Of a stretch of DNA of 64,000 nucleotides, positions 13,710 to 24,802 are shown piece after piece. Below the pieces are notes generated by a model. The model ran no database searches and was not told where the DNA came from. It saw only the letters and a list, made by a program, of their open reading frames with translations. This DNA comes from Spirochaetia bacterium (GTDB lineage Bacteria; Spirochaetota; Spirochaetia; CADAEX01), in contig OY759746.1 of NCBI GenBank assembly GCA_963662795.1, positions 512,001 to 576,000 on the forward strand, given 5' to 3'. Positions within the stretch are counted from its first letter, which is position 1. The number at the start of each line of letters is the position of its first letter. The position numbers and the translations under genes are program-made.

Positions 13710-14951
13710 TTATCCGTTAATATGGGTATTTTTCCCTCTTTTAATTTTTCTGAAAAAAGCGGAGACAAGCAGAAAAAAGAAAAAGAGCGCGGCCGCATAC
13801 AATAATAAATCAGCAGACAGGGAATTATCCGGTGTATCAGTTTTTATATTTAATATAATTTCAGTCATCCGGGGGTATGATGCAATCAGGTCTATAACAG
13901 CGCCTGAGGCAAGGCTTCCCGAAATAATCGAAACAAGATAGATAAGGGTCTGTTTTTTCCCAAGCACTTTTAAAATTACGGATAACGACGCGGCATTTGT
14001 CGCAGGTCCCGCTATAAGAAAAACATAGGCCGCACCCGGGGATATCCCTTTGGCAAGCAGAGCGAGCGCTATGGGAATACTTGTCGTTGAGCATACATAA
14101 ATCGGGATGCCTATTATTATCATTAAAATCATCCCGGAAATACCGCCTGAAAATACTGTATCCTGAAAGAAGTTGTCGGGAATGATGAATGAAATAATTC
14201 CTGCTATAAAAATTCCTGTTACAAACTGCAGTGCGATATCATCCATAAACTCGATAAACACAAAATCATATAAACCTTTAAGTTTATCCCTTATTCCGGT
14301 ATAACCGGCCGGCACAGAGCAGCATGAAGATTCCCCGGGGTTCCCGCTTCCGCAGCATGGGACAGCGTTTGAATCAGAATCAGGGGACAAAGCTGAATCA
14401 GTTTTTACTTTTTCGCTTCCGCAGCATCCTGAAGAGCATGAAGCGCTTTCATCTTCCCGGCTTACTGCGCTGTCTGAATAAACAGAAGCCGGGGCAGTCC
14501 GGACACGGCCCTTGCCGGTTTCCGGCGTCCCCCCGTCCCTGTCAAAAAAAAGACTCAGGAGTCCGCCCCAGACTCCTGTTACAAGTGCGGAAACCGGTCT
14601 GAAAACAGCAAAGAAAGGGCCCATCAGCCCGTAAGTCGCAATAACACTGTCTATCCCTGTCTGGGGTGTTGATATCAGAAAAGCCATCGCGGCAGAATGC
14701 GATGCCCCGGCCCTTTTAAGGTAAACTGTCGCCGGGATTACCCCGCAGGAGCAAAGGGGAAGCGGCACTCCAAACAGCGAAGCTTTAAGTATTGAAGAAA
14801 AAGTGTGTGATCCGATATGCCGGCTTACCGTCTCCCTGCTTATAAGCACGGAAAGTATCCCGGCAAGAAGCATCCCCAGGACAATGTAGGGGCTCATATC
14901 TATAAAAAGCAGAAAAGTTTCCTTTAAAATACCGTAAATTATATCAAACAT
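13710..14951 (-). CDS. SO_0444/DUF318-family metal efflux permease with a Cys-rich loop
   Basis: 'GVPLPLCSCGVIP', 'FLISTPQTGIDS', 'IPIYVCST', 'AGPATN'. Confidence 0.85.
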   Translation of the reverse strand: MFDIIYGILKETFLLFIDMSPYIVLGMLLAGILSVLISRETVSRHIGSHTFSSILKASLFGVPLPLCSCGVIPATVYLKRAGASHSAAMAFLISTPQTGIDSVIATYGLMGPFFAVFRPVSALVTGVWGGLLSLFFDRDGGTPETGKGRVRTAPASVYSDSAVSREDESASCSSGCCGSEKVKTDSALSPDSDSNAVPCCGSGNPGESSCCSVPAGYTGIRDKLKGLYDFVFIEFMDDIALQFVTGIFIAGIISFIIPDNFFQDTVFSGGISGMILMIIIGIPIYVCSTTSIPIALALLAKGISPGAAYVFLIAGPATNAASLSVILKVLGKKQTLIYLVSIISGSLASGAVIDLIASYPRMTEIILNIKTDTPDNSLSADLLLYAAALFFFFLLVSAFFRKIKRGKNTHING

Positions 14952-14975
14952 TGATTTATCCTCTCCCGTTGAGCT

Positions 14976-15365
14976 CTACTGCTCCCTGATATGTTCAAGA
15001 CCTGTGTTTATGATTTCATTAATATGGCTGTCCTTAAGCGAATAAAAAACATGCTTGCCCTCTTTTCTGTACCTGACTAACCGGTTATGGCGCAGTATTT
15101 TGAGCTGATGTGAAATCGCGGTCTGCTGCATATCAAGTGTCTCTGAAATTGTGTGTACGCAAAGCGGTTTTTCAGACAGTATTGAAAGTATTCTCAGGCG
15201 CGTCGGGTCACCGAAAACCTTAAAAAACTCAGACAAATCCTGCACTTCCTCATCAACCGGAATACTTTCAAGGAGATTTGAGGGGACGGGAGTGCATTCT
15301 TCTTTTGCCTTCCCATCATTGCCGTTAAAATTGTTTTCACTGTTTTTGCCAGTTATCTCTGTCAT
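14976..15365 (-). CDS. ArsR/SmtB metal-sensing repressor
   Basis: 'FFKVFGDPTRLRIL', 'ISHQLKILR', alpha5 metal site 'DSHI...EHIRE'; start moved to ATG 15365, which follows GGAGGT. Confidence 0.92.
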   Translation of the reverse strand: MTEITGKNSENNFNGNDGKAKEECTPVPSNLLESIPVDEEVQDLSEFFKVFGDPTRLRILSILSEKPLCVHTISETLDMQQTAISHQLKILRHNRLVRYRKEGKHVFYSLKDSHINEIINTGLEHIREQ

Positions 15366-15409
15366 GATAAATACCTCCCTGATTAACCGCTTAGCTCTTA
15401 ACATATCTT

Positions 15410-15431
15410 TATATGAACACTTATTCATATA
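15410..15431. promoter_or_regulatory. SmtB/CzrA-type operator
   Basis: Perfect inverted repeat TATATGAA-cactta-TTCATATA, about 45 nt upstream of the repressor start. Confidence 0.8.
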
Positions 15432-15514
15432 TATAATATATCTTTTCACTTTAATCAAGTTTTCTGCAGATTTTTTTCCGTTTTTAATTCTTCAGGTAAA
15501 ATAAGCCTGTTTTA

Positions 15515-15870: not shown

Positions 15871-17361
15871 TCAGATATTTCTCTGATAAATATCCTCAAC
15901 TCTCTTATACCACAATCTGTAAAAGTCAGCTGTCTCAGGATCCGGCTTTATAACAACTTTTGTTTCATTTACCGGAAGCGCATTATCAAGCGTAGAGAGA
16001 ATACCGGCTGCTGTCATGGCTGTTTTTGCTGCGCCGAGTGCGGAGGCTTCTTTAATACTTGTAACATTGACTTCTGTATTAAAAACATCTGCCTGCATTT
16101 GCAGCCAGAATCCGGATGTGCAGTAACCGCCGGAAGCAAGCAGCGGCATGTGAAAATTATGCAGTTCCTCAAGCGAGTGATATACAGAACACATACGGAA
16201 CATGACACCTTCCAGAGCAGCCCGTATTAAATGTTCCCTTCCATGTGAATAATCCAGCCCGAACATCATCCCCCTGACTGATGCATTCCAATCCGGACTT
16301 CTCTCACCTGTCAGCAGAGGGATAAAAACCAGCCCATTACTGCCGGGTGCAATTGATTCCGCCTGTCTGTCAAAGGTTTCATAAACATCTTCAGAATAAA
16401 GTGAAGCGTCATATTCAGCCTGTCTGGGAAAAAGCCTGTATAACCAGCTGGCTGCCAATCCGGCATTGTTAATGGCTCCTCCATTGATCCAGTGATTTTC
16501 ATCAAAAGGATAAGTCCAGGTTCTTCTTTGAGGATCAAGCAACGGGTTCCTTTCCGTCAGCCGCAATGCTCCGCTTGTCCCGATGGTTGAAACGATCATT
16601 TTTGAACCGGCTGAGGTGAGAGCAATATTGGCAAGAATTCCATCACCCGAACCGATGTGAACAGGGAAACCTGAGGGCAGGCCTGTTTCATTCGCAATAA
16701 AAACCGAGGTTAGTTTTTTTACAGTCAGCGCCGGGACAATTTGACTTAACCGGGATGGACTGAGTTTTAGAATATCAAGAATTTTATCATCCCAGTTAAA
16801 AGTCCCGATATTAAGCATACCCTGGGCACCGGCCATTCCGGGGTCAATTATCCATTCTCCGCAAAGATGGTATAACAGATAATCCTTTAACCCTGCGAAA
16901 CGTGATGCCGGACTGCAGAGTTCTTTTTCCGTTAAGGCAAAATGAAGAATTTTACTTACAGGATACATGGGATGATCAAGCCGGCAACCTGTTCTTGCAT
17001 AAAGGTCCTCAATGTCCCTGGTACCGATATAAGAAGCCTGTTCCCTTGCCCTGGTGTCAGTCCACAGATAAACAGGAGTCAGCGGCTGTCCCTCTCTGTC
17101 GAGAGCCATGATGCTGTGCATATGGCAGCTGATCCCCAGAATGTCGGGCTTTTTGTTTTTCTGTTTGGCGAGACCTGCAAGTTCTGAAAGAGCCTGAATT
17201 GCAAACTTAAGTATTAATTCAGGATCAACTGTCGCATGCCCGTCTTCAGTAGTTGTTATGGGTGATTTTTTTTTTACAGAAATAATTTCCCTGCCGTCTG
17301 CATCAAAAAGGATTGCCTTTATATTGGAGGTTCCAAGGTCCAGACCGATGGCATAGTTCAT
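15871..17361 (-). CDS. gntK: FGGY-family carbohydrate kinase, gluconokinase-like
   Basis: 'IGLDLGTSNIKA', 'HPMYPVSKI', 'IGTSGALR', 'GGAINNAG', 'GERSPDWN'. Confidence 0.75.
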   Translation of the reverse strand: MNYAIGLDLGTSNIKAILFDADGREIISVKKKSPITTTEDGHATVDPELILKFAIQALSELAGLAKQKNKKPDILGISCHMHSIMALDREGQPLTPVYLWTDTRAREQASYIGTRDIEDLYARTGCRLDHPMYPVSKILHFALTEKELCSPASRFAGLKDYLLYHLCGEWIIDPGMAGAQGMLNIGTFNWDDKILDILKLSPSRLSQIVPALTVKKLTSVFIANETGLPSGFPVHIGSGDGILANIALTSAGSKMIVSTIGTSGALRLTERNPLLDPQRRTWTYPFDENHWINGGAINNAGLAASWLYRLFPRQAEYDASLYSEDVYETFDRQAESIAPGSNGLVFIPLLTGERSPDWNASVRGMMFGLDYSHGREHLIRAALEGVMFRMCSVYHSLEELHNFHMPLLASGGYCTSGFWLQMQADVFNTEVNVTSIKEASALGAAKTAMTAAGILSTLDNALPVNETKVVIKPDPETADFYRLWYKRVEDIYQRNI

Positions 17362-17386
17362 ACAATTACCTTAAAATCGTGATATC

Positions 17387-18124
17387 TCAAATTGCATCTT
17401 TTCCCAATTCGCTTTTTTGAGATTCATGAATTTTCCTGATCCGGTCTATGGTATTCTGAATATGATCATCCAGTATTGCCGCTGTCTGCTCTTTATCATC
17501 CGCAAGAATTGCATTAACTATTTTCCTGTGATACCACCTGCCAACCTGATTTCCCAAAGCGATAACAATTTCTTCCATTGCTTTTCTGAACAATTCATTG
17601 AGTATTTGATTGACCTTGATAATTAGAGTATTGCCCGATATCAGGCATAGTTTTCTGTGAAATTCCAGATCAAGTTCTGTAATTCTGTCAATTTCAGTTT
17701 CAGGCGTACTTTCCAGCAAATCAACATTATTAGCCAGAAACTGTTTGTCTTCACTTGTAATGTTTCTGAATACAAGGGGAACTATACCTACCTCAAGAAT
17801 TTTCCGGTAGTCAAGTACCTCAAGTATATTCCGGTCATCGAGACCTATTATTGGAATAAGAACATTCATATTCAAATCGACAGAAACATCGACGACAAAC
17901 GTTCCTTCTCCCTGTCTGGAAAGAAGAAAGCCCTGTGCAATAAGAGATTTAATTGCAGTTCTTACTGATATCCGGCTGACTCCCATCAACCGGCACAGTT
18001 CATTTTCCGAAGGAATCTTTTCTCCGGCTTTCCAGTGCCCGTCAAGAAGCAGCCTCCTCAGCTGATCATAAACCTGTGTATGTATTTTTTCTGTTTTTAT
18101 GGCCTTTATAGGGTTTTGATCCAA
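17387..18124 (-). CDS. GntR/FadR-family transcriptional regulator
   Basis: 'GEKIPSENEL..MGVSRISVR' HTH plus FCD domain; TTG start. Confidence 0.92.
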   Translation of the reverse strand: MDQNPIKAIKTEKIHTQVYDQLRRLLLDGHWKAGEKIPSENELCRLMGVSRISVRTAIKSLIAQGFLLSRQGEGTFVVDVSVDLNMNVLIPIIGLDDRNILEVLDYRKILEVGIVPLVFRNITSEDKQFLANNVDLLESTPETEIDRITELDLEFHRKLCLISGNTLIIKVNQILNELFRKAMEEIVIALGNQVGRWYHRKIVNAILADDKEQTAAILDDHIQNTIDRIRKIHESQKSELGKDAI

Positions 18125-18208
18125 CTTGAATACTCCGCTAAAATAATTTTACTGCATTTTAATAGCATATCCATGTTTAGACAATAGAGTTAAAAACTGT
18201 CAATGGAT

Positions 18209-18961
18209 TTAATAAGCTGTAACCCCTCCATCAACCGGCAGTGAAATGCCGTTGATAAAGGAAGCCTGATCAGATGCCAGATATAAGGCAGCTTCCGCAA
18301 TATCATATATCCCGGCCAGTCTGCCCAGCGGAACTTCTCCCAGTCGTTCCTTCATCCGTTCCGGATCCTTCAGCATCTGCTGTACAAGCAGCGTATCGGC
18401 CGTACTTGGATGAATCGAATTACACCTGATATTATCTTTTCCGTACCTCGAGGCTATTGATTTTGTTAAAAGGGTTAAGGCCCCTTTGGTTGTTGTATAA
18501 GCTTCAGGTGTATATTTATGCCCGACAAGTCCGCATACAGATGACATATTTATTATACTCCCGCCGCCCCCTGCCTTAAGAAAAGGCAATACATATTTAA
18601 TACCAAGAAAAGGTCCTCTGATATTTACCCTATACATCCTGTCCAGTTCTTCACCGCTCATTTCCTCGATATTCTTCCGGATATTTATTCCGGCATTATT
18701 AACCAGGACATCGATTCCGTCGGATTCCTTTTGAATCATTTCCACAGCTGATTTCCAGCTTGATTCATCGCTTACATCAAGATTTATAAAAAATGCCCTG
18801 CCGTTGTTGTTTTTCAATTCCCCAACAGATTTCGCCCCCTGTTCCCCGTTCATATCCCCTATAAAAACAACAGCACCTTCCCTGCAGAAAGTTTCCGCAA
18901 TCGCGAATCCGATACCCTGCGCTCCCCCTGTTACAAGGGCGGTTTTATTATCAAGTTTCAT
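18209..18961 (-). CDS. Short-chain dehydrogenase/reductase (probably NAD-dependent)
   Basis: TGGAQGIG, NNAG, YTTTK; Asp after beta-2 (IGDM). Confidence 0.92.
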   Translation of the reverse strand: MKLDNKTALVTGGAQGIGFAIAETFCREGAVVFIGDMNGEQGAKSVGELKNNNGRAFFINLDVSDESSWKSAVEMIQKESDGIDVLVNNAGINIRKNIEEMSGEELDRMYRVNIRGPFLGIKYVLPFLKAGGGGSIINMSSVCGLVGHKYTPEAYTTTKGALTLLTKSIASRYGKDNIRCNSIHPSTADTLLVQQMLKDPERMKERLGEVPLGRLAGIYDIAEAALYLASDQASFINGISLPVDGGVTAY

Positions 18962-19012
18962 AATGATGCTCCAAAAAAATGCTGCCCGGTTAAAAACCGG
19001 GCAGAAAAATAA

Positions 19013-20032
19013 TTATTTAACCTTGGAGGTTATGTCCTTAACCTGTTGAATAAGACCGGGTCCAATCTTGTACTGGAACTGTGTATATACCGGCTGTACA
19101 GCATCCTGAAAAGCTTTTTGCTGTTCAGGTGTAAGCTCTGTAACTACCATACCGTTCTTCCTAAGCTCCCCGACATAATCCGTATTCATTTTCCTGTTCG
19201 TGGCTCTCTGAAACAAAGCTGATTCATGAGCCGCTTCAAGAAGTATTTTCTGTTCTTTCGCGCTGAAAGAATCAAACAATTTCTTGTTCATCAGTAAAAT
19301 ATGCGGTCCGTAGACATGACCGGTCAGTGTTGTGTAACCCTGCACTTCATAAAACTTTGACAGGTATATTGTCGGGATGGGATTTTCCTGGCCATCGATG
19401 GTCTTCTGCTGCATAGCGGTGAATACCTCGCTGAAAGGCATTGGAGTTGGATTGGCGCCAAGTGCTTTCCACGCTGCAAGATGGATCGGGTTCTCCATAG
19501 TTCTGACCTTTAAGCCTTTAAGGTCTGCCGGGCTTTTAACTTCCCTTGCGCTGTTGGTAAGCTGTCTGAATCCGTTCTCATAATAGGCAAGCAGTTTCAA
19601 TCCCTTGTCCTCAAGTTTTGCAGCAAGTGCCGCCCCTACTTCACCGTCAAGAACAGCGTCGGCAGCTTTTTCACTCGGGAATATAAACGGCAGGTCCAGC
19701 ACCATGAAATCAGATACCAGCCCTACAAGAGGAGATGCGGATGTACAAACCATCTCAAGTGTTCCCATCTGGGTCGATTCTGTAGCCCTCACATCATCTC
19801 CCAGCTGTGCATTGGCGTATACCTGGACTTCAAATTTTCCCGGCAGTTTTTCATTGAGAATTTCACCGAATTTCACACATGCAAGATATGATGGATGTTT
19901 TTCATTAATACCATTGGATATCTTAAGGACTACAGGGCCGGAGCCTTTTGCCTCGCCGGATCCCCCGGCAAGTACAGGAAATGCAGAAAAAACCAGAAGG
20001 ACACACATAATCAGAAATACTGTCTTTTTCAT
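19013..20032 (-). CDS. dctP: TRAP transporter solute-binding protein
   Basis: 'ENGFRQ', 'DLKGLKVR', 'IDGQENP'; start moved to MKKTVF after AGGAG. Confidence 0.93.
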   Translation of the reverse strand: MKKTVFLIMCVLLVFSAFPVLAGGSGEAKGSGPVVLKISNGINEKHPSYLACVKFGEILNEKLPGKFEVQVYANAQLGDDVRATESTQMGTLEMVCTSASPLVGLVSDFMVLDLPFIFPSEKAADAVLDGEVGAALAAKLEDKGLKLLAYYENGFRQLTNSAREVKSPADLKGLKVRTMENPIHLAAWKALGANPTPMPFSEVFTAMQQKTIDGQENPIPTIYLSKFYEVQGYTTLTGHVYGPHILLMNKKLFDSFSAKEQKILLEAAHESALFQRATNRKMNTDYVGELRKNGMVVTELTPEQQKAFQDAVQPVYTQFQYKIGPGLIQQVKDITSKVK

Positions 20033-20142
20033 TATAACTCTCCTTATTTTTTTATCCGATCTCAATACTGAGATCTAAAGTTCTCCGGGAACTCCTCCCC
20101 GGCATCCCCGGAAGAACCAAGTGACATGTTTTTCCTGTGTTC

Positions 20143-21420
20143 CTATTTGACAAGATTCGGGATGAAAGTTATCAGCCCGGGAACATAGGTTATTATAATA
20201 AGGGTAACTACCATTATCATAATGTTAGGCATTATTGCCTTGCTTAACTGGGCTACAGACAGTTTGGATATGCCGCAGCCGACATATAGAATATTTCCTA
20301 CAGGCGGAGTAATAAGTCCTATGCAGAGGTTTACAATCATAACAACGCCAAAGTAAACCGGATCGATCCCCATATTAACAGCCAGAGGAAGAAGCATCGG
20401 CCCAAGGATAAGCAGGGCGGGAGTCAGATCCATGACACAGCCGACCAGAAGAAGCAGGATGTTTATAAAGAACATTAAAAAGTATTTATTGTCTCCCGCA
20501 AGACTCAGCAGGGTTTTTGACAGAAGCTGGGGGATCTGTGCAGTTGTTATAAGGTAGGCCGCAGCCATCGCCGCTCCGCAGACAAGCATTACAACGGATG
20601 TCATTCTCGCAGTATTGATTAATAGTCCGGGAAGTTTTTTCAGATCCAGCTCCCTGTAAATAAAAAGACTGACAAAAAAAGCATAAACAACAGCAATTAC
20701 CGCAGCTTCGGTCGGGGTATAAACCCCGGATATGATTCCGCCTAGAATGATTAGAGGCAGCAGCAGTGCCCAGAAGGCATCAGCACCCGCCAAAAACGCT
20801 TTTTTAAGACTGAAACGCCCTTCTGCCTTGTACCCTGCCTTCCTGCTATGCACATACCAGCCAATCATCAGCCCGAAACCGATAAGAACGCCCGGAATTA
20901 TTCCTCCGAGGAAAAGTTTGACTATGGAAACATTAGCGATAACCCCAAATATAATCATGGGAATACTGGGGGGTATTATGGGACCGATCGTTCCTGCCGC
21001 GCTGAACAATGCCGCGCTTTTTGCCTCATTATACTTCTCGCTTTTCATGACAGGATATAAAAGAGATCCCATGGCTGAGGTATCGGCAACAGCTGATCCG
21101 GAGACCCCTGCGAAAAGCATACTGGCAAGGACTGTAACATAACCCAGTCCGCCCCTGACATGCCCAAGTATCGCTCCGGCAAACTTGACTATCCTGCGGG
21201 ATATTCCTCCGCTATTCATAATTTCTCCTGCAAGGAGAAAAAAAGGAATCGCCATAAGCGGGAAATTATCTATTCCCCGTACAATATTCTGAACCATCAG
21301 AGCGGCTGAAACATTTCCGATTACCATCATGAGAACCATTGCGGTAAGAATAAGGGCAAAAGCTATTGGAACATTCAGAAGTATGAAACCGAACAGGGAA
21401 ATTAAAAACAGTGCAAGCAT
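20143..21420 (-). CDS. dctM: TRAP transporter large permease
   Basis: 'LMAIPFFLLAG', 'SGSAVAD', 'IIPPSIP', 'TPTEAA', 'ITPPVG'. Confidence 0.95.
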   Translation of the reverse strand: MLALFLISLFGFILLNVPIAFALILTAMVLMMVIGNVSAALMVQNIVRGIDNFPLMAIPFFLLAGEIMNSGGISRRIVKFAGAILGHVRGGLGYVTVLASMLFAGVSGSAVADTSAMGSLLYPVMKSEKYNEAKSAALFSAAGTIGPIIPPSIPMIIFGVIANVSIVKLFLGGIIPGVLIGFGLMIGWYVHSRKAGYKAEGRFSLKKAFLAGADAFWALLLPLIILGGIISGVYTPTEAAVIAVVYAFFVSLFIYRELDLKKLPGLLINTARMTSVVMLVCGAAMAAAYLITTAQIPQLLSKTLLSLAGDNKYFLMFFINILLLLVGCVMDLTPALLILGPMLLPLAVNMGIDPVYFGVVMIVNLCIGLITPPVGNILYVGCGISKLSVAQLSKAIMPNIMIMVVTLIIITYVPGLITFIPNLVK

Positions 21421-21941
21421 TACTTCTTTCCTCCAAAAACTTTTACAAGCATTGATATGTTATTTCCAAGCTTGATGAAAGCCTGAATCAGCAGAAGCAG
21501 TGCACTGACTGGAACGACCATGTATACAACACCGTATGGTATCGCCAGCGCCGGGGAAGTCCAGCCGCTGTTGAAAGTGTGGGAAGTAATTGACCATCCT
21601 CCATAGAGCAGTATTCCTATCGCAGCTATAGCCAGCAGGTTTGCCGCAACCAGAACTATCCTTGATGCGCGCAGAGGCAATACTGTAATCAGTATATCCA
21701 GCCCAAGGTGTTCATTATTGACATAAGCCAGCACAGAACCCAGGAAAGCCAGCCAGATCAGCATGAACCTGGATATTTCTTCCGACCAGGCCAGTGCAGA
21801 ATTAAGAAAATAACGGGCTATTACATTTGAAAATACAAAAACGACCATTAAGGCCAGTAATAAACCAATTACCCAGCTGATAAGCCTTATCAGCTGTAAC
21901 TCGATCCTCTCTATAAGATTCTTTTTTTCAACTAAAGCCAT
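21420..21941 (-). CDS. dctQ: TRAP transporter small permease
   Basis: Four TM segments; 'WSEEISRF.LIWLAFLG', 'HLGLD'. Confidence 0.93.
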   Translation of the reverse strand: MALVEKKNLIERIELQLIRLISWVIGLLLALMVVFVFSNVIARYFLNSALAWSEEISRFMLIWLAFLGSVLAYVNNEHLGLDILITVLPLRASRIVLVAANLLAIAAIGILLYGGWSITSHTFNSGWTSPALAIPYGVVYMVVPVSALLLLIQAFIKLGNNISMLVKVFGGKK

Positions 21942-22036
21942 TCATATCTCCTTAAGAAAGATTCACTATGACCAGTAAAAACTGAATCAGTTCAGTTTTA
22001 AAAAATATCAGTTTTTACATAATATCCGAAACGGCT

Positions 22037-22921
22037 TCATTTTCTTACTTTAATATCAGCCAGACTTTCATAAAACTGAATCAGACCGCCGTGATCATCT
22101 TTTTCCCTGCCTTTAACCTTAAGCGCCTGCATTATTTCCATAACAGTGCTGGTCAGCGGAACAGGAACTCCAACCGCATGGGCCGTATCCAGCGCATTCA
22201 TCAGGTCCTTGATATGAAGTTCTATCCGGAAACCGGGCTTGAAATTACCCTCAAGGATAAGAGGCATTTTGGCATTAAGCACTGTACTTCCGGCAAGTCC
22301 GCCCTTGATGGCATTAAAGACCGCTTCAGGATCAACACCGGCTTTGGTTGCAAGCACCATTGCTTCAGATACGGCAGCAATATTCAAAGCTACAATTATC
22401 TGATTTGCAAGTTTTGTTACATTTCCGCTGCCTGTTTCCCCTACCAGTATTACAGAGCTTCCCATTACTTTAAGCATTTCTTCAACTTTTCTGAAAACAT
22501 CTTCAGGTCCTCCGGCCATAATGGCAAGAGTTCCGTCAATCGCCTTTGGCTCTCCTCCGCTTACAGGCGCATCAATAAAAAATGCACCTTTCTCCGCGAG
22601 CAAAGAAGCCATTTCCTGACTTACAAGCGGAGCAATCGAACTCATGTCTACAACTATTTTACCTTGTGATATCCCCTCAAGGATGCCGTTTTTCCCCGTA
22701 ATAACTTCCCTGACATGTGGTGAATTGGGAAGCATTGTTATAATTATATCTGTTTTCTGAGTAACCTCTTTAGCAGACCCGGCAGCCTCAGCCCCCGCGT
22801 CTGTTAATGACTTTACTGACGATTTATTGATATCAAAAACCAAAAGATCATATCCTGCTTTTTTAAGATTCAGCGCCATTGGCCGGCCCATAATCCCAAG
22901 TCCTATAAAACCGATTTTCAT
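22037..22921 (-). CDS. garR: 2-hydroxy-3-oxopropionate (tartronate semialdehyde) reductase
   Basis: 'GFIGLGIMGRPM', 'MLPNSPHV', 'DAPVSGGEPKAIDGTL', 'KLANQIIVA', 'FKPGFRIELHIKDL'. Confidence 0.9.
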   Translation of the reverse strand: MKIGFIGLGIMGRPMALNLKKAGYDLLVFDINKSSVKSLTDAGAEAAGSAKEVTQKTDIIITMLPNSPHVREVITGKNGILEGISQGKIVVDMSSIAPLVSQEMASLLAEKGAFFIDAPVSGGEPKAIDGTLAIMAGGPEDVFRKVEEMLKVMGSSVILVGETGSGNVTKLANQIIVALNIAAVSEAMVLATKAGVDPEAVFNAIKGGLAGSTVLNAKMPLILEGNFKPGFRIELHIKDLMNALDTAHAVGVPVPLTSTVMEIMQALKVKGREKDDHGGLIQFYESLADIKVRK

Positions 22922-22931
22922 TACTATCTCC

Positions 22932-23864
22932 TTAGCTTTTAAGTATTTTTTTTATGCCGGATACAATATCAAGCTCTGTCAGATGATATGCCGTAAGCAG
23001 ATCCTCATAGCAGGAGGCTGATGTACCGAACTGATCCTGGATACCGATTCTAAGCAGAGGCAGCGGAAATTCGCTTAAAGCTTCAAGAACCGCGCTTCCA
23101 AGTCCGCCGAAAACAGAATGTTCTTCAGCTGTAAGCACTCCCCTCTTTCCATCAGCAAATTTCCTCAGAGCCTCAATATCGAGAGGCTTAATAGTACTGA
23201 CGTTTACTACTTCAACAGAAATCCCTTCTTTCTCTGCAATCCCGGCCGCCTTTAATGCCTGGTGAACCATAATACCGCTGGCAAATACAGCAATATCCTT
23301 TCCCCTGCGCAGGCTTTTCATCTGCCCTATTTTATAAGGCTCATCTTCTTCCGTAAGCACAGGAAGCGCTTCCCTGTTTATCCTTATATAGGCAGGTCCG
23401 CTGATTTCCGCCATGGCTTTAACCATTTTTCCGGTTTCAACAGCATCAACGGGAGAAAGAACCGTCATATTAGGCAGAACTCTCATTAGGGCGATATCAT
23501 CTATTGACTGGTGTGTTTTTCCATCGCCGAAATCCGAAAGTCCGGCGCTTGACCCGCAGATATTTACATTTAACCCGGGGATCGCTATGGAACTCCTTAT
23601 CTGATCATATGCACGGCCTGTAGCAAATACGGCAAAAGAACTGTAAAAAGGGATTTTTCCGGACAACGCAAGCCCCGCCGCTGTTGATGCCATATTCTGC
23701 TCCGCAATTCCCATCTGGAAATATCTTTCAGGAAAACTTGCCTGAAAAAGATAACTCATTGTGGATTTGCCGAGATCAGCTTCCAGTACTACAACTTCAC
23801 TATTCTCCTTACCGAGTTTAACCAGTGCTTCTCCGTAACTCTTTCGAAGGCTTTCAGTAATCAT
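22932..23864 (-). CDS. Split transketolase, C-terminal subunit
   Basis: 'GIAEQNM', 'RAYDQIR', 'DGKTHQSIDD', 'EEHSVFGGLGS'. Confidence 0.92.
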   Translation of the reverse strand: MITESLRKSYGEALVKLGKENSEVVVLEADLGKSTMSYLFQASFPERYFQMGIAEQNMASTAAGLALSGKIPFYSSFAVFATGRAYDQIRSSIAIPGLNVNICGSSAGLSDFGDGKTHQSIDDIALMRVLPNMTVLSPVDAVETGKMVKAMAEISGPAYIRINREALPVLTEEDEPYKIGQMKSLRRGKDIAVFASGIMVHQALKAAGIAEKEGISVEVVNVSTIKPLDIEALRKFADGKRGVLTAEEHSVFGGLGSAVLEALSEFPLPLLRIGIQDQFGTSASCYEDLLTAYHLTELDIVSGIKKILKS

Positions 23865-24730
23865 AACTTTTCAACCTCCTTTCTGGTGTTTTCAAGATCT
23901 TTAAGTGCTGTACCGTATTGCTCCTCTGTAAGGCTTCCGTTATGAAATGCAGCCTTATTCTCCGCAAAGGAAAAACCTTTCCCCTTGACAGTCCGGGCAA
24001 CAAGAACAGACGGTTTTCCTTTAATACCGGCAGCTTCATCAAGCGAATTATGAATAGCTGTTACATCATGACCGTCAAGATTAATAACATGCCACCCGAA
24101 AGCTTTCCATTTTTCAGAGATATCATGTATAGGAAATATTTCTTCCGTAGTCCCTGTCGCCTGGATTCCGTTTAAATCAATGATTGCCGTAAGGTTATCC
24201 GCCCGGAACGCACTTGATGCCATTGCCGCTTCCCATATCTGCCCTTCAGACAGTTCCCCGTCTCCGCAGATAACAAAAACCCTCCCTGTGGAGTTATTCA
24301 GCTTCATCCCGAGAGAAAGGCCAAGACCGACTGACAGCCCCTGGCCCAATGAACCTGTCACAGCTTCAATACCCGGGGTCCTTTCCATATCAGGATGCCC
24401 CTGAAGTACGCTTCCATAGCTTTTAAGGGTTTTAAGTTCACTGCGTTTTATCATTCCAAGCTCAACCAGAGCCGCATACTGTGCCAGAACAGCATGTCCC
24501 TTGCTCAAAAGAAGCCTGTCCCGGTTCTTTTCATCCGGATGTTCCGGATTTACATTCATGTGGTAAAAGTAAAGACATGCAATAATATCCGCTATTGATG
24601 AGCTTCCCCCCAGATGTCCGACTTTTCCAGGCGGCAGCATTGCAAGGATATTGGAGCGGATGTCGCAGGCTCTCAGCATGATTTCTTTTTTATTAAACAC
24701 TTTATTCTCCATATTTTTTCCTGACAACAT
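23861..24730 (-). CDS. Split transketolase, N-terminal (TPP-binding) subunit
   Basis: 'GHLGGS', 'LSKGHA', 'LQGHP', 'GSLGQG', 'GDGELSEG...N'; alternative start at 24712. Confidence 0.92.
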   Translation of the reverse strand: MLSGKNMENKVFNKKEIMLRACDIRSNILAMLPPGKVGHLGGSSSIADIIACLYFYHMNVNPEHPDEKNRDRLLLSKGHAVLAQYAALVELGMIKRSELKTLKSYGSVLQGHPDMERTPGIEAVTGSLGQGLSVGLGLSLGMKLNNSTGRVFVICGDGELSEGQIWEAAMASSAFRADNLTAIIDLNGIQATGTTEEIFPIHDISEKWKAFGWHVINLDGHDVTAIHNSLDEAAGIKGKPSVLVARTVKGKGFSFAENKAAFHNGSLTEEQYGTALKDLENTRKEVEKL

Positions 24731-24754
24731 ATTATCCCGGTTGTGACAGGTATG

Positions 24755-24802
24755 TTGTAATACAAGTTACCTATTATAAAAACGGAATTTCTCTCCCGTC
24801 AA
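24755..24802 (-). promoter_or_regulatory. Sigma70 promoter with a GntR/FadR-type operator for the transketolase operon
   Basis: Minus strand TTGACG (24802-24797)-18 nt-TATAAT (24778-24773); palindrome TTGTA-A-TACAA at 24755-24765. Confidence 0.7.

Follow-up and report, generated by a model that had tools for sequence, protein, structure and literature searches.

We analyzed a 64,000-nucleotide stretch of DNA from a Spirochaetia bacterium (GenBank assembly GCA_963662795.1, contig OY759746.1, positions 512,001 to 576,000 of the forward strand), hereafter called the window, which belongs to a source genome of 3.93 Mb on one contig. Open reading frames together with Pfam and NCBIfam matches delimit nine co-directional, minus-strand genes at window positions 15871-24730, among them a transketolase (TK) divided over two genes, a GarR-type reductase, a tripartite ATP-independent periplasmic (TRAP) transporter, and a short-chain dehydrogenase/reductase (SDR). 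A preliminary description of this DNA had treated these genes as one locus and proposed that they encode an undescribed pathway in which the SDR oxidizes a sugar acid, TK removes a two-carbon ketol, and GarR reduces the remainder. The unity and the gene assignments of the locus were borne out, with all nine genes on the minus strand, Pfam and NCBIfam in agreement, and spacing between neighbors ranging from a 4-nt overlap (TktN/TktC) up to a 95-nt gap. In the direction of transcription, the genes are:

23861..24730, minus strand: TktN, N-terminal, thiamine diphosphate (ThDP)-binding subunit of transketolase, 289 aa (PF00456, 4.7e-47; NF004559 over residues 14-284)
22932..23864, minus strand: TktC, Pyr and C-terminal subunit of transketolase, 310 aa (PF02779, PF02780)
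22037..22921, minus strand: GarR-type tartronate semialdehyde (2-hydroxy-3-oxopropionate) reductase, 294 aa (NF008592, TIGR01505, PDB 1vpd)
21420..21941, minus strand: DctQ, TRAP small permease (PF04290, 1.6e-31)
20143..21420, minus strand: DctM, TRAP large permease (PF06808, 3.7e-129; TIGR00786)
19013..20065, minus strand: DctP, TRAP solute-binding protein (PF03480)
18209..18961, minus strand: classical SDR oxidoreductase, 250 aa (PF13561, PF00106), proposed to be an aldonate (omega-1) dehydrogenase, with the substrate inferred
17387..18124, minus strand: GntR-family regulator with an FCD effector domain, FadR subfamily (PF00392, 2.7e-20; PF07729, 2.8e-17)
15871..17361, minus strand: FGGY kinase, gluconokinase-like, 496 aa (PF00370, PF02782)

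Neither Pfam nor NCBIfam matched any dehydratase or aldolase family in the locus, as the preliminary description had said, and the signature of the Gar/Gcl pathways, i.e., GarD, GarL, or glyoxylate carboligase adjoining GarR, was likewise absent from the window locus.

The split transketolase and its partner enzymes

The ThDP-binding domain lies on TktN and the Pyr and C-terminal domains on the adjacent TktC, which is the architecture of a split TK, and the best PDB match of TktC was the split TK of Carboxydothermus hydrogenoformans (6yaj, 5.7e-90). The catalytic core is in place, with D114 and H118 of TktC invariant (presumably filling the catalytic Asp and His roles of E. coli D469 and H473) and the ThDP GDG...N stretch present in the TktN translation. 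Ser105-Ser106 of TktC replace the canonical Thr-His pair, while R7, S34, D114, H118, and R164 are retained. In an alignment to human TK, Ser106 stands at H416, R7 at R318, S34 at S345, D114 at D424, and R164 at R474, which we take to be H461, R358, S385, D469, and R520, respectively, of the E. coli enzyme. Four of these E. coli residues, R358, S385, H461, and R520, presumably make up the phosphate-binding set, and by this measure the canonical sugar-phosphate signature of TktC is incomplete: R7, S34, and R164 are present and the phosphate-binding His has become Ser106. Among 85 relatives in the clade, the pair reads Ser-Ser in 82, Thr-Ser in one, and Thr-His in two.

Three of the four E. coli positions are named in PMC12016104, where the TktA variant R358I/H461S/R520Q had raised activity on 5-keto-D-gluconate and made tartaric semialdehyde. 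TK combined with a semialdehyde dehydrogenase has also been reported to convert 5-ketogluconate to tartrate in vitro, the TK cleavage giving the C4 semialdehyde (PMC13527115). As aligned here, the clade's natural His-to-Ser change corresponds to a substitution that engineers selected to make TK receptive to a donor with a carboxylate and no phosphate. The databases name the best 120 homologs generically, as 'transketolase'; the close ones come from Oceanispirochaeta, Sphaerochaeta, and one Firmicutes metagenome-assembled genome (MAG).

Since the same genome encodes a full-length TK with the usual Thr-His (loop Gly-Glu-Asp-Gly-Pro-Thr-His-Gln), in addition to three further split pairs, the TK of the locus is not the housekeeping enzyme. 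All four split TKs of this genome deviate from the canonical loop, which the one full-length TK keeps. Two of the split pairs lie in tandem elsewhere (L182; G000:C1:1636504-1643444), with a zinc-dependent alcohol dehydrogenase (Zn-ADH) gene between them, an aldehyde-dehydrogenase-like gene after them, and an AraC regulator and an ABC transporter ahead; one of the two pairs is likewise Ser-Ser at the His position.

GarR passed two equivalog models for tartronate semialdehyde reductase (NF008592, 474 bits, cut-off 397; TIGR01505, 399 bits, cut-off 341) and matched the solved Salmonella enzyme (1vpd) at 2.1e-114. It fell below the cut-offs of L-threonate dehydrogenase LtnD (NF043037, 203 bits vs. 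350) and of sulfolactaldehyde reductase (NF012005, 220 bits vs. 348). Family membership thus predicts a tartronate semialdehyde reductase of the GarR/GlxR type. Among GarR homologs found apart from TK, those of 58-60% identity sit with GntP and a GK-I glycerate kinase, and those of 47-49% with PdxA and DUF1537.

The closest PDB entries to DctP were 7bbr, 4p9k, 4pdh, 4p47, 4nq8, and 4pdd. Of these, 7bbr is CxaP, a sugar-acid binding protein (PMC12076931, PMC11668362), CxaP-type solute-binding proteins (SBPs) are reported to bind gluconate (PMC12076931), and the others of this group were crystallized with erythronate or pantoate, or open (PMC11668362). R167, R188, and N228 of DctP align without gaps to R152, R173, and N213 of 4P47, and F211 and D91 are likewise conserved in that alignment; in such proteins, the Arg/Arg/Asn set is described as binding the carboxylate, the aromatic residue as a lid, and the acid as binding a hydroxyl (PMC11668362). 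With its P, Q, and M components and the Arg/Arg/Asn set of its SBP, the transporter belongs to the DctP-type carboxylate TRAP systems, and a hydroxy-carboxylate is a well-supported prediction for the ligand. The annotated TTG start of dctP may lie upstream of the true start.

The SDR passed only a generic subfamily model of NCBIfam, and its PDB matches were unspecific; the gluconate 5-dehydrogenase model, one among many matches, scored 170 bits (cut-off 369). The regulator joins an N-terminal GntR helix-turn-helix domain to a C-terminal FCD domain and so belongs to the GntR/FCD subfamily, in agreement with its earlier designation as a FadR regulator.

Conservation of the transketolase-reductase linkage

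All nine genes are syntenic in one foreign locus, that of a Spirochaetia MAG (L001), at 69-88% identity. Genome neighborhoods were compared in Spirochaetota genomes and in metagenomes. GarR was searched in 401 Spirochaetota genomes, with matches in 21, the window's own genome included, and 20 of the 23 foreign places were examined (one short contig and the two weakest matches were left out). Four of these 20 regions (L077, L078, L087, and L088, from four genomes in three families) carry the TktN-TktC-GarR triad, with TktN-TktC pairs 55-62% identical to those of the window and GarR directly after them. All four also carry a TRAP system and a GntR/FCD gene. Beyond these shared parts, L077 has genes for an SDR, AP_endonuc_2, and GK-I glycerate kinase; L078, which is without an SDR, has AP_endonuc_2 and a URO-D-like protein; and L087 and L088, which end after dctM, each have a Zn-ADH along with an SDR that shares 57% identity with that of the window. 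No FGGY kinase lies within 10 kb of any of the four triads.

The metagenomes were scanned with an alignment of five TktC orthologs, which gave 80 loci at 50-68% identity; counts were taken over the 54 loci in which 1 kb or more of sequence follows TktC, and a GarR ortholog was defined by at least 45% identity. By this definition, GarR is present in 35 of the 54 loci, directly downstream of TktC in 31, and an SDR ortholog (50-66% identity) in 27; one or the other is directly downstream of TktC in 40. Other partners in the same 54 loci were AP_endonuc_2 (10), DctM (6), Zn-ADH at 40% identity or higher (4), and GK-I (4), while FGGY kinase was found in none. Across related loci, TktN orthologs of 54-82% identity adjoin TktC, and the TK module has GntR/FCD genes beside it in L077, L078, L087, and many metagenome loci. 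When all 85 related loci are counted, GK-I is present in five (L077, L108, L131, L151, and L166), an Asp/Glu-racemase-like gene in seven, an IlvD/EDD-type dehydratase in three, a GntP permease in two, and Dak1/Dak2 and DUF1537 with PdxA in one each.

The pairing of TK with GarR is therefore beyond chance. The constant core consists of the specialized split TK and GarR, usually joined by an SDR or other dehydrogenase, an acid transporter (TRAP, GntP, or MFS), and a GntR/FCD regulator, and it is without a conserved kinase, dehydratase, or aldolase. Both this kinase-free linkage and the equivalog scores led us to reject the possibility that GarR is a short 6-phosphogluconate dehydrogenase (6PGD).

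Several variants of the locus were seen. In one without GarR (L127:1599-9042), the order is Zn-ADH, GntR, TktN, TktC, SDR, a DUF1537 acid-sugar kinase, and PdxA, which suggests a four-carbon TK product that is phosphorylated and then oxidatively decarboxylated. Another (L153:5436-16132) has a near-Gcl protein (669 bits, cut-off 791), a GntR/FCD gene, the TK pair, GarR, and a Zn-ADH, together with genes for a D-2-hydroxyacid dehydrogenase, a GarL-like aldolase, and a URO-D-like protein. Enzymes of the Gcl and GarL types are established producers of tartronate semialdehyde, so that three sources of this compound possibly surround one reductase; among related loci, Gcl-like and GarL-like genes were seen only here. 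In L114, L115, and L119, the module lies beside an IlvD/EDD-type dehydratase, and L114, the only one of the three annotated with Pfam, also encodes an FAH-family protein and an aldehyde dehydrogenase, which together make up a set of the Weimberg type for pentonates. Finally, L120:5517-10769, L151:8449-13926, and five more loci form a subclass without an SDR, having Asp/Glu-racemase-superfamily and AP_endonuc_2 genes and often GK-I. L120 includes a 325-aa open reading frame without a family match, and in L151 a GH39 glycosidase and a peptide-type ABC transporter lie upstream of the module. The AP_endonuc_2 proteins of L077 and L151 matched only the 5-keto-L-gluconate epimerase model, and weakly (87 and 78 bits, cut-off 300).

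The FGGY kinase stands outside this core. It is gluconokinase-like, as had been described, in that TIGR01314 (gntK_FGGY) is its best model, though at 352 bits it is below the cut-off of 648 and cannot be assigned to GntK. Its best match in the PDB was a Lactobacillus 'gluconate kinase' (3gbt, 2.7e-72), with the next FGGY match at 1.4e-34. Among all TK loci examined it is limited to the window and L001, and between these two it is the least conserved gene (69% vs. 80-88%). Judged by this distribution, it is a lineage-specific, late addition, and since this is so, the locus is not one uniform pathway. Its use as an anchor for the pathway was dropped, since a kinase scan with one genome per species gave 52 loci, only one of which (L001) shares the cluster. 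FGGY relatives of 41-43% identity were also seen in two Clostridia loci (L002:9150-14596 and L004:9905-15558), followed by an SDR, a full-length 6PGD, and the glucuronate isomerase UxaC. This context suggests a hexonate kinase, and the two loci could encode a hexuronate route in which a phospho-aldonate is oxidatively decarboxylated, in place of the usual dehydratase/aldolase route.

The window genome has a 6PGD, and a search of it found no P-loop gluconokinase and no FGGY protein above the GntK cut-off. Our leading guess is that a broad, CxaP-like SBP brings in both C5 and C6 aldonates, of which the pentonate would enter the TK route and gluconate would be converted by the kinase to 6-phosphogluconate. 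The FGGY protein is possibly a glycerate kinase, considering that GK-I occupies the operon end in L077; two MOFRL glycerate kinases encoded at other places in the genome make this reading less likely. A ketose kinase is possible as well, as the Dak1/Dak2 genes in L166 may indicate.

Control elements were predicted at the head of the row and within it:

24773..24802, minus strand: promoter-like site, with -35 TTGACG (24802-24797), an 18-nt spacer, and -10 TATAAT (24778-24773), 11 of 12 positions matching the consensus
24755..24765, minus strand: operator-like inverted repeat TTGTA-T-TACAA, between the -10 box and the TktN start
18982..19004, minus strand: G+C-rich hairpin of 10 pairs followed by a T-run, directly after dctP and inside the gene row

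The preliminary description had extended the locus to 24802, which is where the -35 box of the promoter-like site begins. In the alignment with the sequence upstream of the L001 ortholog, both hexamer regions (-35 and -10) are conserved, which makes this a predicted promoter, a consensus match alone being no proof of function. The inverted repeat sits inside a 23-nt block identical in L001 (invariant columns 216-238), and its position and shape, read with the half-site pattern of FadR-subfamily operators in mind, make it a candidate operator for the GntR/FCD repressor of the locus. Exact copies number five in the genome against ~6 expected, counting both strands, so that the significance of the palindrome rests on position and conservation and not on rarity; for the same reason it was rejected as a regulon marker, nothing usable having been obtained. 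The hairpin may attenuate or partly terminate transcription before it reaches the genes for the SDR, the regulator, and the kinase.

The flanking genes are unrelated to the locus. On one side (window 13710-15458) are an ArsR-type (ArsR/SmtB) regulator and an SO_0444-family Cu/Zn efflux protein (357 bits, cut-off 300), and on the opposite side a divergently transcribed protein with a weak VWA match and a two-component pair. About 72 kb beyond the window, an acid-sugar-like cluster (L186; G000:C1:647895-651299) encodes a PrpR-like sigma-54 activator, a DUF1537 kinase, an iron-type alcohol dehydrogenase, PdxA, a DHDPS-family protein, and an amino-acid-type ABC transporter.

Proposed pathway and rival explanations

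The gene identities, the conserved linkage, the active-site substitution, and the SBP residues are the data on which the following scheme is built; its chemical steps, acceptor, chain length, and regulator site are what we infer from them. We incline, by a modest margin of confidence, to the view that this is an inducible locus for the uptake and non-phosphorylative, redox-neutral breakdown of an aldonic acid by way of TK. DctPQM would import the hydroxy-carboxylate, and the SDR would oxidize its penultimate carbon, giving an (omega-1)-keto-aldonate with a free HOCH2-CO- ketol end. The split TK would then move the C2 ketol to an aldehyde acceptor, most simply glyceraldehyde-3-phosphate, which would become xylulose-5-phosphate with no need of a kinase. 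The carboxylated aldehyde (acid semialdehyde) left behind would be reduced by GarR with NAD(P)H, re-oxidizing the cofactor from the SDR step; one NAD(P)H made and one used is a balance that would suit fermenting spirochaetes. The GntR/FCD protein probably represses the promoter at 24773-24802 via the palindrome at 24755-24765. A non-phosphorylated TK donor is favored because the loci share no sugar kinase of their own (FGGY absent from all 54 metagenome loci, Dak and DUF1537 each in 1 of 85).

The three-step logic of oxidation, TK cleavage, and reduction, which the preliminary description had put forward, thus appears to explain the locus better than any alternative at hand, with independent support from the altered active site and from a core that is free of kinases. 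The conserved TK/GarR/SDR set, the loss of the His, and the SBP residues speak for the scheme as a whole, whereas the regiochemistry of the SDR and the substrate of TK are still conjectural.

As to chain length, the substrate we prefer is a pentonate. TK donors follow a (3S,4R) stereochemical rule, and because of this the competent C5 compound would be the 4-keto acid common to D-arabinonate and L-xylonate. This D-threo 4-keto-pentonate would be cleaved to (R)-tartronate semialdehyde and reduced to D-glycerate, which would be phosphorylated by a glycerate kinase elsewhere in the genome, or within the operon in relatives. The AP_endonuc_2 and racemase-like accessory genes could adjust C3 and C2 of other stereoisomers. 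We rate C5 above C6 for the window locus on account of the GarR scores, the GK-I genes in five loci, the L153 locus, the dehydratase-linked loci (L114, L115, and L119), and the company of TK-free GarRs, and the module may take both. In a quick tree with SH-aLRT support, to which we give little weight, TK-linked GarRs interleave with GK-linked GarRs on short branches, again in favor of C5. Tetronate genes were found in none of the loci with GarR, vs. GK-I in five, among the 85 related loci. The preliminary description had likewise specified 4-keto-pentonate, tartronate semialdehyde, and glycerate; the five GK-I loci agree with that sequence, while the Idn-like extras and the locus with DUF1537 and PdxA point to C6 in variants.

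A number of observations weigh against the scheme. No specific family matched the SDR, and its substrate and regiochemistry are for this reason guesses; a whole subclass of loci does without any SDR and has the racemase-like and AP_endonuc_2 genes instead. Three of the four presumed phosphate-contact residues (R7, S34, and R164) are retained in TktC, so a phosphorylated substrate is still compatible with the sequence. The SBPs of the orthologous Spirochaetota loci are only ~30% identical to DctP of the window, and a comparison of them with the PDB gave no close ligand-defined relative. GK-I is present in only five of the 85 loci. Extras reminiscent of the Idn or 5-ketogluconate systems occur (a weakly IdnD-like Zn-ADH, the GntP permease, and the gluconokinase-like FGGY), and L127, which has no GarR, joins TK and SDR with a DUF1537 kinase and PdxA; these suggest C6 substrates and C4 products for some variants at least.

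The hexonate counterpart of our scheme draws on several of these points. D-gluconate (or L-idonate in the relatives with Zn-ADH) would be oxidized to 5-keto-D-gluconate, from which TK would produce L-threo-tetruronate (tartaric semialdehyde) and GarR L-threonate; the threonate would enter a tetronate pathway elsewhere, and the FGGY protein would be a gluconokinase serving a parallel 6-phosphogluconate route. The TK cleavage of 5-ketogluconate is the sole reaction of this type with experimental support, the FGGY kinase is closest to a gluconate kinase, and the genome has a full 6PGD as well as DUF1537 kinases and a PdxA. Relatives have Idn-like extras, namely an SDR and a Zn-ADH whose best or near-best match is L-idonate 5-dehydrogenase (below cut-off), a GntP permease is present in L173 and L176, L127 ties TK and SDR to a DUF1537 kinase and PdxA, and CxaP-type SBPs reportedly take gluconate (PMC12076931). 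However, GarR passes the tartronate semialdehyde cut-off and misses that for L-threonate dehydrogenase (203 vs. 350 bits), its recurrent partner is glycerate kinase (five loci, vs. none with tetronate genes), and L127 is without GarR; moreover, a gluconokinase and a TK route for one substrate in one operon would be redundant. We therefore regard the hexonate route as unlikely for the window, albeit deserving of serious attention. Lower still we place a phosphorylated route, in which the SDR would make a ketose from an imported acid or polyol, the FGGY kinase would phosphorylate it, and TK would carry out its ordinary reaction, with GarR a side or unrelated step. Such an arrangement of FGGY, dehydrogenase, and TK in one operon is the usual polyol logic, and it would account for the retained phosphate-site residues R7, S34, and R164. 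It is nevertheless improbable, considering that the kinase is found in none of the 54 metagenome loci and none of the four Spirochaetota TK-GarR loci, that the conserved feature is the adjacency of TK and GarR, that TRAP SBPs of the DctP type bind carboxylates, that the phosphate-binding His is lost in the TK clade, and that a penultimate-oxidized aldonate would have no spare primary alcohol beyond the ketol end that TK needs.

The remaining explanations strike us as more doubtful again. If the locus were Idn-like only, imported 5-ketogluconate, or a keto acid related to it, would be reduced to gluconate by the SDR and phosphorylated to 6-phosphogluconate by the FGGY kinase, the split TK would boost the pentose phosphate pathway, and GarR would be a passenger. 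The gluconokinase-like FGGY, the match of the SDR to gluconate 5-dehydrogenase (170 bits, cut-off 369), and the genomic 6PGD agree with this, but it leaves both the kinase-free linkage of TK, GarR, and SDR and the specialized TK active site unexplained, and a canonical TK is already present in the genome; we hold it to be very improbable. Our estimate is just as low for a scheme in which TK takes its C2 unit, with decarboxylation, from hydroxypyruvate made out of tartronate semialdehyde or glycerate, so that the module would convert C3 acids and pentose phosphates into one another instead of cleaving a longer keto acid. TK classically accepts hydroxypyruvate as a donor, and AP_endonuc_2, a family that includes hydroxypyruvate isomerase, accompanies TK-GarR in 10 of 54 loci. 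The window locus, however, is without AP_endonuc_2, the proteins of L077 and L151 match only a keto-gluconate epimerase model, and weakly, carbon would be wasted relative to glycerate kinase, and the SDR and the aldonate-type SBP would have no role. The last candidate, a sulfonate pathway akin to sulfo-TK or sulfo-TAL, would have TK cleave a sulfonated ketose and a GarR-like enzyme reduce sulfolactaldehyde. Split TKs and GarR-family reductases do occur in sulfoquinovose clusters (PMC11659671), TRAP systems also carry sulfonates, and IseP was a moderate match to the SBP (180 bits). Against these stand the lack of any match in the locus for sulfoquinovose isomerase, sulfoquinovosidase, transaldolase, or a second isomerase, the 474 bits of GarR as tartronate semialdehyde reductase vs. 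220 (cut-off 348) as sulfolactaldehyde reductase, and an SBP closer to aldonate binders, and we give this explanation hardly any credence. Having weighed these alternatives, we lean, with some reserve, toward reading the locus as a TK-dependent catabolic route for a non-phosphorylated ketose, of a kind undescribed for sugar acids.

Significance and relation to known systems

If the aldonate scheme is correct, it would constitute a fourth mode of sugar-acid breakdown, beside the dehydratase/aldolase, the kinase/decarboxylase (C4-C6 acids), and the oxidative, Weimberg-type modes, and would extend natural TK chemistry from phosphate and sulfonate esters to carboxylates. Thousands of genes labeled only 'transketolase family protein' would gain a function, and the occurrence of GarR without an aldolase or carboligase would be accounted for. 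Enzymes from nature would moreover become available for the step from 5-ketogluconate to tartaric semialdehyde, which is now forced with mutant housekeeping TKs. The broader proposal, to which we give an even chance, is that TktNC-GarR-SDR represents a widespread, undescribed 'aldonate transketolase shunt' and the first natural TK clade specialized by His-to-Ser for carboxylated, non-phosphorylated ketoses. Such a shunt would let anaerobes feed C5 (perhaps C6) sugar acids into lower glycolysis and the pentose phosphate pathway in a redox-neutral way that spares ATP, and it would be a natural counterpart of the long-sought TK step in tartrate biosynthesis.

As to the novelty suggested in the preliminary description, no account joining TK with tartronate semialdehyde reductase in sugar-acid catabolism was found in a search that had most subscription journals and supplements outside its reach. 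Surveys of C4-C6 sugar-acid catabolism list dehydrogenase-isomerase-kinase-decarboxylase and non-phosphorylative routes, with TK appearing only for apiose (PMC13753588, PMC12994016).

Among known systems, the nearest natural one is the sulfo-TK pathway (SqwGH, then SqwF). There, too, a split TK acts on a non-phosphorylated anionic ketose, transfers C2 to glyceraldehyde-3-phosphate, and leaves an aldehyde that an NAD(P)H enzyme reduces (PMC11659671). It differs in that the anion is a sulfonate, the isomerases SqvD/SqwI make the ketoses, and the end product is excreted, whereas in the window the anion would be a carboxylate, a dehydrogenase would make the ketose, and the product would be assimilated. 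Measured against the cluster composition given in PMC11659671, the window locus is set apart from SqwGH by gene content, since no sulfoquinovose isomerase, sulfoerythrose isomerase, or sulfoquinovosidase was found in its nine genes or their flanks.

Two systems share the reductase or its surroundings. The Gar (GarD-GarL-GarR-GarK) and glyoxylate (Gcl-GlxR-GlxK) routes likewise have a tartronate semialdehyde reductase followed by glycerate kinase; here, by contrast, the semialdehyde would come from TK and not from an aldolase or carboligase. The GntII/Idn system of E. coli (IdnD, IdnO, IdnK, and IdnT) similarly has paired dehydrogenases whose reactions center on a 5-keto-aldonate, and it too includes a gluconate kinase and a transporter for sugar acids. 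Unlike the present locus, Idn presumably has neither TK nor GarR, and its IdnK is a P-loop kinase, not an FGGY protein.

A D-apiose route via the AptA/AptB transketolase was reportedly described by Carter et al. in 2018, and resembles the locus in that a split TK is dedicated to a catabolic cluster which also encodes a transporter with a solute-binding protein. Compared by description only, AptAB is said to act on a phosphorylated substrate (apulose-4-phosphate) and to depend on an obligatory kinase, whereas the core described here is kinase-free and tied to GarR. In its chemistry, the locus is most like the conversion of 5-keto-D-gluconate to tartaric semialdehyde by TK, proposed in grapevine and engineered in E. 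coli, Gluconobacter, and yeast, in that the C2 ketol is taken off an (omega-1)-keto-aldonate, and it shares H461S with the engineered enzyme, the change being natural in the clade of the locus. Those settings are biosynthetic or engineered; their TKs are full-length, whether housekeeping or mutant, and the cleavage product is then oxidized to tartrate. The locus, by contrast, has a natural, dedicated split TK in what appears to be a catabolic operon, keeps both of the Arg residues lost in the engineered TK, and would follow cleavage with reduction.

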